36,803 nucleotides of DNA from NCBI GenBank assembly GCA_016866975.1, contig VGKP01000008.1, forward strand, positions 1 through 36,803, read 5' to 3'. A program made the position numbers and the translations under genes. Shown piece by piece: positions 1-36,803 of the stretch. Each line of letters begins with the position of its first letter. Within the stretch, counting starts at the first letter, position 1. Source of the stretch: Candidatus Pacearchaeota archaeon (GTDB lineage Archaea > Nanobdellota > Nanobdellia > Pacearchaeales > GW2011-AR1). The notes beneath the pieces are model-generated. The model was given only the letters and a program-made list of their open reading frames with translations. It did no database searches and was not told where the DNA came from.

Positions 1-126
1 CCCGAGCATCTCCAAAAACGAGCGCCTGCAACAAACCTCGGCTCATCAGGAATCTTAGATTCCTGACTGCCATCGAGGATTCACATCCTCGAGGTTTAAG
101 CCGAGGTGGCGCATCGTTTTTGTGAT
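1..126 (+). repeat. Palindromic AT-flanked element, copy A (5'-truncated by window edge; carries nested 51-nt module at 44-94)
   Basis: 1-43 is identical to 16348-16390. Ends GGTGGCGCATCGTTTTTGTG-AT like copy D. Confidence 0.9.
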
Positions 127-6388: not shown

Positions 6389-9300
6389 ATGAAAAGAGCA
6401 GGTGTCGCATTTGTTATGTCAAGGAACTTGACTAAAACTCCAGCTTTTAAGCTGGAGTTGTTCCTTGAGCATCCAAAAAAAGAGCGCCTGCATCAAACTG
6501 CGGCTTTTAAGCCGCAGTGGCGCATCGTTTTTTTGATTATTTCTGCTATCGCCGTATTCTTTCTGACTTTGATATCTGTACAAGGAATCTCTGAAGGGAC
6601 TGCTTTTCCTGATGGTAAATATTGCAAAGACAGTGACGGCGGAATATTCTCTTTCCAGAGAGGAGTAGTAGATTCAATAAATTTTTTAGGAATCCCAAAA
6701 AAGTATGAAGACAGATGTCTAGATATGAAAGGGAAAAGTTTTGTAAGAGAGTATTATTGCGATAATGAGAGAGGAAAATGGCAGGAGATGCCTTGCCATA
6801 GTGGATGTGACTTGAGGAAATGCATGCCTTCAAAAGTAAGCATAAAACTAGAAATGACTAAGGAACATTATGCTGCAGGAGAACTGATCGAATTGGCAGG
6901 GTACAAAAAGCTTGATTCCAAATCTGGTGCAGGCGCGGAAAAAATATCGCCTCTTACAGGAAGAGCCGTTGGTATTGGTAGTGAGGGGAGTGGTGGAGGA
7001 AGTGGAAGCGGCTCAGGATCTGAAAGATATTGTGCTTCAACACAATTGTTTGCCAAATTTTCTCTTGAAAATGCCAGACAAAAAAGGGAACTGGCTTCCC
7101 TGCAGAGGGACCTAAATTCATTGGCAAAGGAATCTTGCTCATCAAACAGTGAGTTTTTTGAAGAAGAAGTGGTGCCTTTGATAGAGATGAGAAAAGAGCT
7201 TCTTATAGAACTTATCCGCAGGTCTCCAGTTGCAGCACTTGAGACAAAACCTCTCCCTTCTCATTTTACAGAGAGGCTTAGTGATGAAGAGAGAATAAGT
7301 CTATTGGAAGACAGGAGTCCAAAAGAGGGTTATTTTGATATTGTCCATGAAGAAGATGGCAATGGGCTTGGCAAGAAGTTTCATTATTATTTACGTACTC
7401 AAGGAGATAATCAGAAGAAATATGAAGCTTTTCTTGCTCATGGTGAGCTACAAGAGCATCCCGGCTCTAAAGTCATTGTGCAGGGCCTTGCCTTAGATAA
7501 TGTTCTGGCATTGGATGATTCTCCTGCAAAGACGCAAGTCATTGATAAACCAATCACTCCAGCTCAGGAAAACCTTGGCAAGCAACGCGTCCTTGTCATA
7601 GTATCCAAAATAGAAGGCGTTCCTGCTCCTACGAGTGTTGAGGAAGCAAGGAAAGTTGTATTTGAAGAGGTGCAGGGATTTTATGATGATACATCATATG
7701 GAAAAACAGAACTTATTGGAAAAGTCATTGGACCATATGACTTAAAGTATTCAGAAGATAATAAGTGCAATGAAATAAAACTTCTTCTAAAAGAGGCGTT
7801 TAACCGTAAAGATATTGAATCGTTTGATTATGACCGACTTATCCTTGCTGTGCCTTGTACTCCTGGATGTAATTGTGCTGGAGGATCTGGAACTGTTGGG
7901 AAGATGATGAATTATGAACTTCCTAATGGAAAATATGCAAATTTTAGTGCTTCTTGGGACTTTGTTTTCTCTAAATTTGTTGTATCCCATGAACTGGGGC
8001 ATAATTTTGGAGCCCATCACGCAAACAAATATGAGTGCAGGAAGGATGCGGCAGATTATAGTGGGCTTGAAGTATATGGTCCTGCAAAATCATGTGAGAA
8101 TATGGAGTATGGAGATTCATACGATGTAATGGGTGGCGGTGGCTCATTCAATGCGCCCCATCGCTCCGAGGCAGGATGGCTTTCACCAGAGAATACTAAA
8201 ACTATTGAAGAAGGAACTTTCGTTCTGCGGCCACTTAATAAGAAAGTCTCTCCCGGGACACTCCAGCAGATCCGCATACCTGTCAATTTTGAGTCTGGAT
8301 TTTACTTTCCACCCGAAAATATCTTTTATACTGTCGAATTGAAGTTGCCTTCCAAGGAGGATAAACTCTCTGCGCCTACTGTTTTTCTCCATCTTGCAAA
8401 AGGCTCTGATGATGGAAGTTTTACGTTCTTACAGACCACTCTCTTTGAGCCAAGTGCAACTTCCGAAACTATAATTAATCCAGATGGGACACAAATCAAA
8501 GAGATACAGACCCATAATTCTTTGAAGATACTGAGTCCTTACATTGATCCTTGGAATGGAGTGCAAATAAGCCTTGTTAGTATAAGCGAAGAAGGGGCGG
8601 AGATAAAGGTTGAGAAGTTACAGAAATCTGGCATTAATTTTCAGAAACCTCTTGTTCATTATAATTTTGATGAGCAGACACAACCAAAGGTTCTGAATTT
8701 GGATGCTGATGGATATAGTACTGGACGCTTTAAAGACTCCTCTGAGAATGGTATTTATGCAAAAATTAAGGACAAGGTTCTTCGTATTGGAGGAGGGGTA
8801 TACGTTATGCAAGACTCAGCTTCCCAAAATTATGATAAAATACCTTCGCATATCTCTCTGAGTAATTATCCGCTTTCCTTTATCCAGACACAGAATAAGT
8901 TCACTGTTTCACTTTGGGTACATCCACAATCTTTTTCTTCATTATCTACATCTGTTTATTCAGGCAAGGGAATATCGATTCATATAATGGAAAACGGGGG
9001 AGTGTGGGCCAGTTCTCTTTTCAAGAATGTCCTTTATAGTTCGCCTTCTTACCATTCTGTTTTCTTAGCAGAAGTTGAGTATCGTGAACCTCTTAAGCTC
9101 ATGGAATGGCATCATATTGTCGTTCGTTATGATGGGTCTGAAATGTCTCTTTTTGTTGATGGAGTACTGCGTGATAAAAAATCTTCTCAAAAAATATACC
9201 CTATAGATTCTTCAAGCGAGTCTAAAGAGCATCCTCTTACAAAAGTTCATTTTGGAAGGTATGGGGACCATATCCTAGGTCCCTATTATTCTGAAGGGAT

Positions 9301-9742
9301 ATTCAATGGAGTATTAGATGAATTTAGTATATATGCGCGTGCGCTTGAGGACAAGGAAGTTGCTTCTTTGTATTCCGATTTCTCTCGTCAATCTGTAGAC
9401 TTCAGTCTTGCTCACAGATCCTCACGTTCCTTTATTAAGAATGATTTGGATGAGAAGATATTTGGGTCATTGCGAATCTATTTGGAGAATTATGATCCTA
9501 TCACAAAAACCTGGAGCCCATACAGTCTTGCTCACAGATCCTATTTTGAGAAAAGTCACAAGATTATCCTTCCTCCTCGTTCATCTACATCTATACACTA
9601 TATTTTCAATTCTAAGGGATATGTAGTATGGGGACCTGGAAATTACAGGGTGTATGCATCATTTGAAGAAGATCAGGTCTCTGATAAACGAAAAGGAAAA
9701 ATAATTACGGAGAATTATGTTCAGTTTGAAGTCAAATCTTAA
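6389..9742 (+). CDS. Secreted zinc metallopeptidase (M6/M11-like metzincin) with N-terminal 6-Cys module and C-terminal LamG domain; 40-aa repeat-derived insert in the signal peptide
   Basis: HELGHNFGAHH (HExxH at 7988-8002) and Met-turn-like EYGDSYDVMG. LamG motifs FTVSLWV, WHHIVVRYDG, LFVDG, GVLDEFSIY. Confidence 0.75.
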   Translation: MKRAGVAFVMSRNLTKTPAFKLELFLEHPKKERLHQTAAFKPQWRIVFLIISAIAVFFLTLISVQGISEGTAFPDGKYCKDSDGGIFSFQRGVVDSINFLGIPKKYEDRCLDMKGKSFVREYYCDNERGKWQEMPCHSGCDLRKCMPSKVSIKLEMTKEHYAAGELIELAGYKKLDSKSGAGAEKISPLTGRAVGIGSEGSGGGSGSGSGSERYCASTQLFAKFSLENARQKRELASLQRDLNSLAKESCSSNSEFFEEEVVPLIEMRKELLIELIRRSPVAALETKPLPSHFTERLSDEERISLLEDRSPKEGYFDIVHEEDGNGLGKKFHYYLRTQGDNQKKYEAFLAHGELQEHPGSKVIVQGLALDNVLALDDSPAKTQVIDKPITPAQENLGKQRVLVIVSKIEGVPAPTSVEEARKVVFEEVQGFYDDTSYGKTELIGKVIGPYDLKYSEDNKCNEIKLLLKEAFNRKDIESFDYDRLILAVPCTPGCNCAGGSGTVGKMMNYELPNGKYANFSASWDFVFSKFVVSHELGHNFGAHHANKYECRKDAADYSGLEVYGPAKSCENMEYGDSYDVMGGGGSFNAPHRSEAGWLSPENTKTIEEGTFVLRPLNKKVSPGTLQQIRIPVNFESGFYFPPENIFYTVELKLPSKEDKLSAPTVFLHLAKGSDDGSFTFLQTTLFEPSATSETIINPDGTQIKEIQTHNSLKILSPYIDPWNGVQISLVSISEEGAEIKVEKLQKSGINFQKPLVHYNFDEQTQPKVLNLDADGYSTGRFKDSSENGIYAKIKDKVLRIGGGVYVMQDSASQNYDKIPSHISLSNYPLSFIQTQNKFTVSLWVHPQSFSSLSTSVYSGKGISIHIMENGGVWASSLFKNVLYSSPSYHSVFLAEVEYREPLKLMEWHHIVVRYDGSEMSLFVDGVLRDKKSSQKIYPIDSSSESKEHPLTKVHFGRYGDHILGPYYSEGIFNGVLDEFSIYARALEDKEVASLYSDFSRQSVDFSLAHRSSRSFIKNDLDEKIFGSLRIYLENYDPITKTWSPYSLAHRSYFEKSHKIILPPRSSTSIHYIFNSKGYVVWGPGNYRVYASFEEDQVSDKRKGKIITENYVQFEVKS
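6416..6537 (+). repeat. Palindromic AT-flanked element, copy B (120 nt + AT), in-frame within CDS
   Basis: ATGTCAAGGAAC...CGTTTTTTTG-AT. First 57 nt are identical to copies C, E and H. Confidence 0.95.
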
Positions 9743-14461: not shown

Positions 14462-15241
14462 CTATTTACCGAATTTAATCTTTAATTTGAATGCTGGTCC
14501 AAATCCTTTCGCATTTGGATCTTGCTTAGGAGTGTTACATACTGAGAGAGAGAACTTGGCGCCTGAGATTTCTTTATTACAATAATCCTGATACGATCTC
14601 TGGACTTTTTCTGCTTTCTCTTTGAGTGAAGGAGGGAGCTTTGTCGCCCAATCATTGCTACCTATCTCAAATTTTTCTATTGGAAGGCATTTTTTAAATT
14701 CAGAATCAGGATTAGAGAAGGGAGGAGATGGGGGTAAAGCTGGCGGGGCTCCACTACCCTGGCTTGCTGAACCCGAACCCTGAATCTCAGGGGTAAGTGT
14801 TAAAGGGCCGAAAGAGAATAGACTACATCCCTCATTGTCTGAATGCTTCTCTAGTTTAAGTTTTAGTTTAATTTCTGGAATAAATAATTCATCTCCTAGT
14901 TCAGACTCAGATAGTAAATTCGAGAGAGGCTTATCGGGATCGAGAGTCATCATAGAGGGATTGCATGCGGTCCCAGGCCCATTACATCCTTCAGGACATA
15001 GAGATACTGATCGTGAAATCTTTCCATCTATGCAAGAATATTCTATATGTTTATTGTTCAAACAGGAATCCTTATGCTTTGTCTTGAAAAACCAATTGCT
15101 AGATTGCACTTCTCCAGATATCTTCCTATTCTTCCCATTATCAGAATCTGTGCAAGCATGCTGTGATGAATCATGGCTTGAAATCAATGAAGATAAGATA
15201 ATCAAAACGGTGATTGAAACAATGATTAAACTCTTTCTCAT
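14462..15241 (-). CDS. Secreted protein with one 6-Cys CxDSD module and a Gly/Ser/Pro linker
   Basis: MRK plus hydrophobic leader. CTDSDNG...DSC...EYSC...CPEGC...C. Confidence 0.7.
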   Translation of the reverse strand: MRKSLIIVSITVLIILSSLISSHDSSQHACTDSDNGKNRKISGEVQSSNWFFKTKHKDSCLNNKHIEYSCIDGKISRSVSLCPEGCNGPGTACNPSMMTLDPDKPLSNLLSESELGDELFIPEIKLKLKLEKHSDNEGCSLFSFGPLTLTPEIQGSGSASQGSGAPPALPPSPPFSNPDSEFKKCLPIEKFEIGSNDWATKLPPSLKEKAEKVQRSYQDYCNKEISGAKFSLSVCNTPKQDPNAKGFGPAFKLKIKFGK

Positions 15242-15348: not shown

Positions 15349-15470
15349 ATGTCAAGGAACTTGACTAAAACTCCAGCTTTTAAGCTGGAGTTGTTCCTTG
15401 AGCATCCAAAGCACGAGTGCCTGCAACAAACCACACTCTTCAGAGTGTGGTGGCACATCGTGCTTTTGAT
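15349..15470 (+). repeat. Palindromic AT-flanked element, copy C (120 nt + AT), intergenic
   Basis: 119/120 identical to the reverse complement of 20767-20886. Confidence 0.95.
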
Positions 15471-15493
15471 TTTACCTATAAATTTAAATAACC

Positions 15494-15919
15494 TTGCAAA
15501 TTGACCTTTTTATGGGTACTTCCTTAACTGATTATCGTAATTATGACCAAGGAATTCTTGAAAAAAGGGCAACACTTCCTACTTTAAGAATTAGTGCGCC
15601 TCTTAACAATTCTCTTTTTATAATTGCCCCTTATGGCAAGGGGTTAGCATTGTATTCTTCACATCACGATTTTCCTCTTTCTACAACCCTCTTAGCTCGG
15701 GCAGAAACTTATATTACTCAAGAAGGAGCTGTAGTACGCGCGAATACTCCTCGACTTATAGTTCTAGAAGAGGATCGCAACTTAATTTATGAACGAGATC
15801 CAGAAACTTTCCCTATAATTTTTAAGGATTCTGAACCTACCAGGGCTCACGCGTTCATGAGTGAATATATCAAACAGTGTTATGAGGCTGCGCTTCGTGC
15901 TGCTGGGCAGAAATCTTAA
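15494..15919 (+). CDS. Hypothetical protein, up to 141 aa (start uncertain)
   Basis: Longest ORF of the interval, no motif recognised. Confidence 0.5.
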   Translation: MQIDLFMGTSLTDYRNYDQGILEKRATLPTLRISAPLNNSLFIIAPYGKGLALYSSHHDFPLSTTLLARAETYITQEGAVVRANTPRLIVLEEDRNLIYERDPETFPIIFKDSEPTRAHAFMSEYIKQCYEAALRAAGQKS

Positions 15920-16098: not shown

Positions 16099-16304
16099 GA
16101 GTTATAGCTTCTTGGATGATTCAATCTATCTATCCCTATATAAATTGCTAAGACTCCGCCAAAGATTCCGATAATGGCAATCCACCATTTTATTAAGAAG
16201 AACTGGGTAAATAACCCGATTATAAGGATGGTCGTACTAGTTACTATGGCCAGAATTCCGAGCAAGATATAGGAGTATGCACAGAACTTGACTCTTTTTG
16301 TCAT
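16089..16304 (-). CDS. Small 2-TM membrane protein, 71 aa (ATG at 16304)
   Basis: MTKRVKFCAYSYILLG... The ORF-track extension to 16328 is repeat-derived. Confidence 0.6.
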   Translation of the reverse strand: MTKRVKFCAYSYILLGILAIVTSTTILIIGLFTQFFLIKWWIAIIGIFGGVLAIYIGIDRLNHPRSYNSQL

Positions 16305-16422
16305 GTCGGGAACCGATGAAAACCACACCTTTCAAGGTGTGGTGGTTCCCGAGCATCTCCAAAAACGAGCGCCTGCAACAAACCTCGGCTTTTAAGCCGA
16401 GGTGGCGCATCGTTTTTGTGAT
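16303..16422 (+). repeat. Palindromic AT-flanked element, copy D (118 nt + AT), variant arm 1
   Basis: ATG-TC-GGGAACC...ACCACACCT-ttca-AGGTGTGGT-GGTTCCC-GA-G-CAT, then arm 2 as in copies A and H. Confidence 0.92.
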
Positions 16423-20619: not shown

Positions 20620-21891
20620 TTAGCTTATAAATACCTCCTCAAACCTCTCTAGTCTATCAGGTTTATTTTCTATCACAACAATCTCTCTGACAAGAGAGAT
20701 TGTAGATTTCTCTTTGAGATAAGCACAGCATTCTCCGATAGTCATAGACTTTCCAGACCGATACATCAAAAGCACGATGTGCCACCACACTCTGAAGAAT
20801 GTGGTTTGTTGCAGGCACTCGTGCTTTGGATGCTCAAGGAACAACTCCAGCTTAAAAGCTGGAGTTTTAGTCAAGTTCCTTGACATAAAAAGGCTCAGCA
20901 CTGCATAGGCCATGGTAGCAAGGATTGAATGTCGAACAATCCCTTCTCTTCTTGCGAAGAAAACCGTAGCAAAGCCAAGGTTTTGTTTTATGTCTCGATG
21001 GTACGTTTCTATTTTCCATCGCAGTTTATATGCGCTTATTATCTCAGCGGCATCATTGTCAATGTTAGTTGAAATAAGATGAGCTTTGCCAACAAGCTCA
21101 TCATCTTTGTTTGTCTGTTCTGATATGATCATCTTTACCGACGGTAGATTGTTCAGTATAACAATTGAAGACCACGTCTGATAAGTGTTGCCTTTAACAA
21201 CTGTTTCGTTCAATTTCTGAGAGTGGATTCTCTCAGAAATAAAAGATAAGGATTGCCATCTCCTTTTCTTGTGCAACTTTATCTTCCTGTTTGTCATTAT
21301 AGAACAAACAACTCTTGTCTTCATTTTGAGGCATTTTTTAATAAGTTCATGGTCTGAATACCAAGAGTCAAATAAAATCGTGTGAATCTTGATTTTTAAC
21401 GACGATAATCTATCAATCAAAGATTGAGCCATCTCAATCTTCGAGTCAGTATTTTTTGAATATAGCTCTGGGAAAATTGGTAATTGTAATAATGGAGTCC
21501 AAAGCAGAGCAGTAAAGAACTGATGTCCTTTAATTTGCTTTCCAGAATTATGGTCATGATGATACTGTGCTTCTTGCACGGTATCTCCATTCCTTTCAAC
21601 TAATGTATCGTCTATAATCAGATAAACTGGAGTATTCTTGAAGAGATACCTTGCTTTCTCCAAGTATCTCTTTGTAAGCATTTCTTGTTCACATTTTGCT
21701 TCTGTGATGGCATAATTCAGTTCAGATTGATGCCTTATTTCAGAGGAAGCCTCTGAAATTTTCTTTACAGTCTTATCCGCTAGTGAGATCAGGCCATTGA
21801 CATACTGAACGATGCATCTAAAGCTGCCTTTCGTAAACGCCTTCCTAGCAAACGCTAATATACTCTTTACCTCTTTTATAATCGGAAGCAT
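20620..21891 (-). CDS. IS701-like DDE transposase with 40-aa in-frame insert
   Basis: LIIDDT, ILFDSWY and YKLRWKIETYHRDIKQNLG (DDE with Y-x2-R-x3-E-x6-K signature). Confidence 0.9.
   Translation of the reverse strand: MLPIIKEVKSILAFARKAFTKGSFRCIVQYVNGLISLADKTVKKISEASSEIRHQSELNYAITEAKCEQEMLTKRYLEKARYLFKNTPVYLIIDDTLVERNGDTVQEAQYHHDHNSGKQIKGHQFFTALLWTPLLQLPIFPELYSKNTDSKIEMAQSLIDRLSSLKIKIHTILFDSWYSDHELIKKCLKMKTRVVCSIMTNRKIKLHKKRRWQSLSFISERIHSQKLNETVVKGNTYQTWSSIVILNNLPSVKMIISEQTNKDDELVGKAHLISTNIDNDAAEIISAYKLRWKIETYHRDIKQNLGFATVFFARREGIVRHSILATMAYAVLSLFMSRNLTKTPAFKLELFLEHPKHECLQQTTFFRVWWHIVLLMYRSGKSMTIGECCAYLKEKSTISLVREIVVIENKPDRLERFEEVFIS
20765..20886 (-). repeat. Palindromic AT-flanked element, copy E (120 nt + AT), in-frame in transposase
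   Basis: Encodes MSRNLTKTPAFKLELFLEHPKHECLQQTTFFRVWWHIVLL. Confidence 0.95.
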
Positions 21892-30716: not shown

Positions 30717-30788
30717 GCTCCCATAGTTTATCGGATAGAATGCAACCTTGCGGAGGTTGAGGGCGAGGTTCAATTCCTCGTGGGAGCG
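30717..30788 (+). tRNA. tRNA-Arg (anticodon GCG), intron-less, CCA not encoded
   Basis: Acceptor GCTCCCA/TGGGAGC; anticodon arm CAACC-TTGCGGA-GGTTG; T arm CGAGG-TTCAATT-CCTCG. Confidence 0.93.
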
Positions 30789-30836: not shown

Positions 30837-30946
30837 AGGTCAAGGAACTTGACGCAAACCACACCTCATCGGGAATCTAAGATTCCTGACTGTTATCGAG
30901 GATTTAAATCCTTGAGGTTTAGGGCGTGATGGCGCATCGTGCTTTG
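30837..30946 (+). repeat. Palindromic element copy F: about 60-nt short form carrying the 51-nt module (30867-30917)
   Basis: GTCAAGGAACTTGAC-GCAAACCACACCT[51 nt]TTTAGGGCGTGATGGCGCATCGTGCTTTG. Confidence 0.85.
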
Positions 30947-30963
30947 AACGCATTCACTCAGGT

Positions 30964-36707: not shown

Positions 36708-36803
36708 ATGTCAAGGAACTTGACTAAAACTCCAGCTTTTAAGCTGGAGTTGTTCCTTGAGCATCCAAAAAACGAGCGCCTGCAACAAACCTCGGCTTTT
36801 AAG
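36708..36803 (+). repeat. Palindromic AT-flanked element, copy H (3'-truncated by window edge)
   Basis: Arm 1 is identical to B, C and E. Arm 2 matches A and D. Confidence 0.93.

Follow-up and report, generated by a model that had tools for sequence, protein, structure and literature searches.

Open reading frames in a probably mobile hairpin repeat of Pacearchaeota-type archaea appear mainly incidental to particular subtypes

Why should a 122-nt hairpin element be free of stop codons in one reading frame on each of its strands? The copy at positions 15349-15470 of the window (the 36,803-nt stretch of DNA analysed here, which is contig C8 of an 806-kb assembly of 31 contigs that we call G000) had been read from its sequence alone as stop-free in exactly one frame per strand, the frame in which the flanking AT supplies codon positions 1 and 2. 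That sequence-only reading had proposed that insertion at any ATN codon, in either orientation, would preserve the host protein, suggesting an element selected for coding neutrality. Our analysis points to a different answer. In a Pacearchaeota-type DPANN archaeon, the flagged sequence is probably a recent copy of a non-autonomous mobile repeat, in which the open frames would be mainly incidental, the copies seen in genes would be those that survived filtering, and movement may be of the IS200/IS605 type. Seven copies of the repeat lie within the window:

1..126, plus strand: long-form copy with a nested double-hairpin module of ~51 nt, truncated by the contig start
6416..6537, plus strand: B-subtype copy, in-frame and sense within the signal peptide of a 1117-aa secreted protein
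15349..15470, plus strand: the flagged copy, C subtype, 122 nt, two hairpins, running from ATG to GAT
16303..16422, plus strand: D-subtype copy, 120 nt, intergenic, open in plus 1, minus 0 and minus 2, with a net length that is not a multiple of three
20765..20886, minus strand: C-subtype copy with 99% identity to the flagged copy, in-frame and sense inside a transposase gene
30837..30949, plus strand: diverged long-form copy with AGGTC... in place of ATGTC..., 49 nt downstream of a tRNA-Arg gene (30717-30788)
36708..36803, plus strand: B-type or hybrid copy, truncated by the contig end

The flagged copy lies between a minus-strand gene ending at 15241 and a plus-strand ORF that runs from 15494. 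It is stop-free over 40 codons in plus frame 0 (ATG TCA..., MSRNLTKTPAFKLELFLEHPKHECLQQTTLFRVWWHIVLL) and over 40 codons in minus frame 0 (ATC AAA..., IKSTMCHHTLKSVVCCRHSCFGCSRNNSSLKAGVLVKFLD), and each of the remaining four frames contains stops, just as had been claimed for this copy. Two adjacent hairpins make up the element, each with an outer stem, a loop of 8-9 nt on the 5' side only, an inner stem of 9-10 bp and a tetraloop. The RNA fold of this stretch has a free energy of -63.5 kcal/mol (z = -9.1), and the opposite strand is equally foldable (z about -9). The net insertion made by the 122-nt unit is 120 nt. Directly downstream of the copy, ahead of the ORF at 15494, is an AT-rich, TATA-like stretch, TATAAATTTAAATA (15471-15500), and the copy may have separated the promoter of this ORF from the sequence upstream.

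About 60-80 BLAST matches to the repeat are found in G000, and 58 of the ~80 have recognisable ends. The forms that these copies take are the following:

B, C and hybrid copies together: 122 nt, 25 copies, plus 0 open in 22 of the 25
B subtype: 122 nt, the majority of the 25 copies, open in plus 0 only, with every minus frame closed
C subtype, including the flagged copy: 122 nt, 3 copies, plus 0 and minus 0 open
B/D hybrids: 122 nt, 3 copies, plus 0 and minus 0 open
D subtype: 120 nt, 17 copies, plus 1, minus 0 and minus 2 open, net 118 nt
Long forms: 171, 172, 173 and 223 nt, few copies, with extra nested hairpin modules of 50-51 nt

One open frame per strand, true of the flagged copy, is therefore not a property of the family, since it holds in only 6 of 25 copies in the 122-nt class. 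The minus-strand peptide quoted in the sequence-only reading is likewise that of the C and hybrid copies (6 of 25); in the majority B subtype minus frame 0 is closed by a TGA that arises from ...TGCATCAAAC... (for example in the copy at 6416-6537). The lengths that had been given stand in part. A net 120 nt is correct for the 122-nt class, which together with the 173-nt form (net 171) is the only one whose net length is a multiple of three; this is not so for the D subtype (net 118) or for the forms of 171, 172 and 223 nt, and the nested module, put at 51 nt, measures 50-51 nt, in some copies a multiple of three and in others not. A short form of ~60 nt exists as module 1, which in G000 is always joined to further small hairpins.

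Of 16 genomes of the same genus, 13 contain the family, which is also present at 74 loci of MAGs labelled Pacearchaeota, Woesearchaeota or Nanoarchaeota. The outer stems and the junctions are conserved between species and the inner stems are swapped, with compensatory changes; in the cross-species comparison, compensatory double changes are found in 19 of 44 base pairs. The visible constraint acts on the hairpins.

Composite arrays are also present in G000, at C2:40332-40671, C3:37444-37670 and C13:7450-7678. In these, module 1 is followed by several different mini-hairpins of ~25 nt (for example TCAAGAATC-loop-GATTCTTGA), some of which are nested within the module 2 loop. The family resembles a kit of hairpin bricks that can be exchanged for one another. 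A diverged copy on C13, near 7678, abuts an apparent tRNA 3' end (T-arm-like ...GGTTCAAATCC...).

Copies within protein-coding genes bear most directly on coding neutrality. The window holds two host genes:

20620..21891, minus strand: DDE transposase gene, 423 aa, single copy in G000, with Pfam matches to DDE_5, DDE_Tnp_2/ISC1217-like and DDE_Tnp_1
6389..9742, plus strand: gene for the 1117-aa secreted protein, with Laminin_G_3 and reprolysin-like metallopeptidase matches

In the transposase gene the copy is inserted at an ATG codon and encodes residues 336-375. These 40 extra residues lie between ...AYAVLSLF and MYRSGKS... and correspond to a clean gap in all of the 5-6 aligned homologs; the ~120 best homologs, nearly all of which span the whole query, are mostly 380-391 aa long and all shorter than 423 aa, by 40 residues or so. 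In the 1117-aa protein the insertion splits the signal peptide (MKRAGVAFV / 40 aa / IISAIAVFFLTLISVQG), and the leader of a relative's homolog is uninterrupted. A sense copy splits a second signal peptide, that of a large secreted protein of 1539 aa on contig C19 (MRLLIAPILF / 40 aa / IIIYMLPFIAAY), and a 204-aa protein at the edge of contig C22 has as its start the ATG of the sense copy itself.

Antisense copies are found in genes as well. In a P-loop kinase-like gene of contig C3, a hybrid copy in antisense orientation comes directly after MKK; the ortholog in the related genome G009 starts MKIHICGIYGSGKST, three orthologs align from residue 45 only, and the Pfam AAA_18 match begins at residue 47. 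In relatives, antisense copies are located after MNV of a PIN_2 protein (Pfam match from residue 44), mid-way through a 206-aa protein and after MA in a pilin-like protein, and a sense copy is located near the C-terminus of a small membrane protein. Where relatives of these host genes were compared, they are without the 40 residues. The sequence-only reading had itself stated that it would fail if only one orientation were ever found in intact genes. Both are found, at Met or Ile codons, sense in the transposase, the two signal peptides and the C22-edge protein and antisense in the P-loop kinase, the PIN_2 protein, the 206-aa protein and the pilin-like protein, and on this point the reading therefore stands.

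The ATG of the P-loop kinase gene overlaps the stop of an upstream nth-like (endonuclease III-like) gene by ATGA (G000 C3:46016-47268; L034 1017-2269), an arrangement that suggests translational coupling of the two genes. The 120-nt antisense insertion starts 9 nt past this overlapped start.

When the AT of a copy provides codon positions 1 and 2, the host protein gains 40 stop-free residues, in the sense orientation with the 122-nt subtypes of G000 and in the antisense orientation with the C and hybrid copies only. The proposal that insertion at an ATN codon is frame-neutral in either orientation is thus correct for subtypes that are open in frame 0, and it does not describe the in-gene copies L069 and L135 of relatives, which are read in frame +2, follow TAT instead of lying at ATN and belong to a subfamily that is open in +2. 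Because all of the verified in-gene copies use an open frame and fold without a bulge-helix-bulge, we infer from their sequences that they are translated and not spliced out. Splicing as bulge-helix-bulge introns was considered and rejected, as the loops are one-sided and 8-9 nt long and no 3-4-3 motif is present. A genuine small-protein gene was also rejected, since the frame extends for variable lengths into unrelated flanks. The two peptides were sought in public proteins as well, and the word-based search, which is insensitive at 40 residues, returned six longer proteins for the sense peptide and three for the antisense peptide. Judged from the gene sequences, the repeats would alter real proteins of very small genomes, among them signal peptides, a kinase N-terminus and a transposase, and they can mislead gene callers on start codons.

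Tolerance of the repeat within genes is limited. With crude, ORF-based gene calls that cover 85% of the genome, 55 of the 80 repeat matches are intergenic, as compared with 23% of TTTAT sites (77% of these sites are genic), and verified genes hold 5 of the 80. Approximately 9% of copies are in genes, whereas 37% would be expected if in-frame sense insertions were all tolerated. The survivors in genes are found mostly in signal peptides, shortly after the initiation codon or towards the C-terminus. What is seen is tolerance at a few sites and not neutrality, which is far from complete. Survivorship of frames that are open by chance explains the data at least as well as does selection for coding neutrality.

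How often chance opens such frames can be gauged from shuffles in which base pairs and composition are kept. At least one open frame per strand is found in 11-12% of these structure-preserving shuffles and exactly one per strand in ~10%; plus 0 and minus 0 are both open in 2.4% and are the only open frames in 1.6%. We also compared observed and expected counts for 34 distinct 122-nt copies, from G000 and related genomes, that form 14 subfamilies, the expectation being calculated with the conserved skeleton fixed. Plus 0 is open in 5 subfamilies versus 3.7 expected, minus 0 in 6 versus 3.7 and both in 4 versus 1.4. The subfamilies are mutually related, and this weak excess of open frames is therefore an upper bound; the doubly open excess is compatible with a degree of selection on the element itself. 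Three of the subfamilies have their open frames elsewhere, in +2 for two of them.

Element-level selection for coding neutrality, by which one open frame per strand and a length that is a multiple of three would let the repeat colonise genes in either orientation, can thus draw on several observations. In the flagged copy the two AT-phased frames, and no others, are open, a state reached by few shuffles; the 122-nt length is kept between species at 75-93% identity; diverged subfamilies with entirely different inner stems, for example in G006, G011 and G013, keep both frames, and more subfamilies do so than expected; and copies are present in genes in both orientations. Against this, the commonest subtype of G000 has no open minus frame, the D subtype is of the wrong net length, and loop-flip variants (TTTTAA to TTAAAA) create in-frame stops. 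The main subtype of a sister genome, G008, has stops in all six frames, yet is present in several near-identical copies. The kinship of the subfamilies overstates even the weak excess, and the share of copies in genes falls far below that expected of neutral in-frame sense insertion. With the two-frame property confined to minority subtypes, a small excess over chance and strong depletion from genes, the claim of selection for coding neutrality is not borne out, and we regard such selection as unlikely. We infer instead that the open frames are mainly incidental to particular subtypes and that purifying selection filters insertions, the element itself being not clearly optimised.

If the copies are filtered survivors of a mobile family, how does the family move? 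Copies are polarised within contigs: all 14 on C3 are in the minus orientation, and all 9 on C2, all 6 on C9 and 6 of the 7 in the window are in the plus orientation, with C1 mixed. The sole exception in the window is the copy inside the mobile transposase gene. With the replication strand read from GC skew, orientation agrees with local skew in 66 of 80 matches, and skew corrected for gene orientation agrees with copy orientation in 13 of 14 informative contigs. In G008, orientation agrees with skew in ~21 of 27 copies, and ~6 are discordant. Copy orientation is unrelated to the direction of neighbouring genes (flank patterns 17, 11, 10 and 6). The left flank is TTAT, with T at -2 in 45 of 46 copies and at -1 in 37 of 46, followed by AT, so that the AT of the insertion site is usually preceded by TT; the right flank is weakly T-rich. 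Every full copy has AT at each end, and terminal inverted repeats were not found beyond 2-3 nt at the element ends.

Elements of the IS200/IS605 family insert 3' of a fixed tetra- or pentanucleotide, carry subterminal hairpins and target the lagging-strand template (PMC5027513). The hairpin ends of the repeat, its fixed left-flank tetranucleotide and its replication-strand polarity suggest, by analogy, a similar single-strand route, to which we give a little less than an even chance. Movement would be linked to the replication fork and catalysed by a Y1 HUH transposase supplied in trans, with the top strand of the element on the G-rich strand and insertion 3' of TTAT. The fork would fix the orientation of the element, so that the frame to be kept open, sense or antisense, would depend on how a gene is oriented relative to replication; persistence in genes of both orientations would be limited to subtypes open on both strands. 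Of the five in-gene copies of G000, four fit such a model, three being sense copies in genes co-oriented with the polarity and one being the antisense, doubly open copy in an opposed gene; the transposase copy is the exception. Setting strand polarity against the open frame required provides a testable mechanistic idea. That a polarised, Y1-moved family repeatedly evolved doubly stop-free subtypes, as the sole way to persist in genes on either strand, we think decidedly doubtful. Were it true, proteins of genome-reduced DPANN archaea would be steadily supplied with 40-residue insertions by the family, frequently in signal peptides or N-termini.

Candidate enzymes are present in the genome. Y1_Tnp genes of G000 are located at C10:194-541 (L031) and at the contig ends C6:1-153 (L032) and C12:26760-26912 (L033), and comprise two kinds of IS200-type gene. 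In the genus, Y1_Tnp was detected in 7 of 17 genomes, which are incomplete MAGs, and it was not detected in the incomplete MAGs G008, G005 and G016, all of them rich in the element. The flanks of 14 Y1-transposase loci had no significant BLAST match to the element modules, and none of these loci qualified as an autonomous partner with ends like those of the repeat. A partial module-2 end (...GGCGCATCGTTTTTTTGAT) of the repeat lies ~20 nt upstream of the left hairpin of the C10 Y1 element. By eye, the right end of the C10 Y1 copy shares ...GGAGGATGTCA with a G009 copy, and the left flanks of the Y1 insertion sequences read TTGAT, TTTAT and TCTAT; this is a lead only, the ends being not definable by MAFFT. 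Metagenome contigs, from which near-identical records may be missing, were scanned by exact match for the empty sites predicted for the transposase copy and the flagged copy, and neither site was found. A DNA search of 16 sister genomes for the flagged intergenic locus returned essentially the repeat alone and one short flank segment, the orthologous locus not being recovered because its flanks are too diverged.

The same features could be read in other ways. The polarity could result from selection after insertion rather than from insertion bias, and a 2-bp target duplication by some other enzyme would account equally well for the terminal AT...AT. Such a duplication is what a classical MITE would show if it were moved in trans by a DDE transposase, for example the IS701/ISC1217-like enzyme of the window. 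The AT that bounds every full copy on both sides and the presence of a DDE transposase gene in the same window agree with this explanation. The terminal inverted repeats are of at most 2-3 nt, however, and the left flank, unlike the right, is conserved past the AT (TT at -2 and -1). Double-strand cut-and-paste predicts no strand polarity, and the sole DDE transposase gene examined, that in the window, is itself interrupted by a copy. We consider a MITE of this kind improbable. Improbable as well, in our estimate, is that the copies are structured-RNA genes or regulatory sites (small RNA, terminator or processing signal), to which reading frames would be irrelevant. Such a role would accord with the very stable folds and strong covariation, with a sense-strand 3' T-run that resembles an archaeal terminator and with the many copies that lie near gene ends, gene starts or tRNA genes. 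It accords poorly with the equal folding of both strands, with an orientation that tracks GC skew and not the neighbouring genes and with the copies inside coding sequences. In addition, an Rfam search of the window at gathering scores matched the tRNA-Arg alone and gave no match for the repeat, and the near-identical copies, together with contig breaks at copies, indicate a recent spread of mobile DNA.

Taken as a mobile hairpin repeat with an IS200/IS605-like route as the tentative mode of movement, the family can be set beside known systems. Its closest known kind is the Rickettsia palindromic element (RPE), reportedly described by Ogata et al. in 2000, with which it shares in-frame persistence. 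As with RPEs (reviewed in PMC10969869), these are hairpin-forming repeats of 100-150 bp scattered through a small, gene-dense genome in many copies, some of them in-frame within unrelated protein genes, where the insert adds a conserved peptide and leaves the host protein unbroken, and with no transposase of their own. In contrast to RPEs, the host is a DPANN archaeon, and a sequence relationship is not to be expected across domains of life. The share of copies in genes is ~9%, as compared with nearly half in some RPE families, and both orientations are used. The archaeal repeat is moreover a modular hairpin chain with several length classes, some not multiples of three, and its orientation is polarised along the chromosome. 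Full-text literature on DPANN or Pacearchaeota and in-frame repeats yielded no description in archaea, and an in-frame hairpin repeat in archaea appears to be unpublished. To our knowledge, in-frame selfish DNA inside proteins is a textbook case for Rickettsia only.

Miniature elements of archaea and bacteria offer further comparisons. The PATEs of Haloquadratum are miniature derivatives of the IS200/IS605 family. With this family and its miniatures the repeat has in common subterminal hairpins instead of inverted repeats, a short conserved sequence on the left flank only, an orientation that follows the replication strand (as judged here from skew) and Y1 HUH transposase genes in the genome. 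It differs in that the ends of the resident Y1 elements are, by BLAST, unlike those of the repeat, the transposase was not found in several element-rich relatives and a search of G000 for TnpB (PF07282) found none. In IS608, guide sequences separate the cleavage site from the hairpin, whereas the hairpin feet of the repeat abut its ends and leave no room for such guides. REPs are extragenic by definition, 20-40 nt long and headed by GTAG. The REP/BIME and REPIN repeats of bacteria, with their RAYT transposases, are, like the archaeal family, short, multi-copy hairpin repeats with compensatory stem changes, and their movement is generally ascribed to a single-copy Y1 HUH enzyme. The units described here are instead 50-60 nt long, arranged in tandem and not as inverted pairs, and sometimes intragenic, and no repeat-flanked RAYT was seen in this genome, only the partial module end near the C10 Y1 element.

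Contigs of G000 frequently start or end inside copies of the repeat, both in the window (1-126 and 36708-36803) and on contigs C5, C7, C15, C16, C22, C24 and C31. The repeat family is therefore a main cause of assembly breaks in this MAG. A 127-nt overlap allows contigs C21 and C10 to be joined. The third-codon GC skew of G000 has a contig-level component of approximately +/-0.1 that is independent of gene orientation, a replication-type asymmetry that could serve to order and orient contigs.
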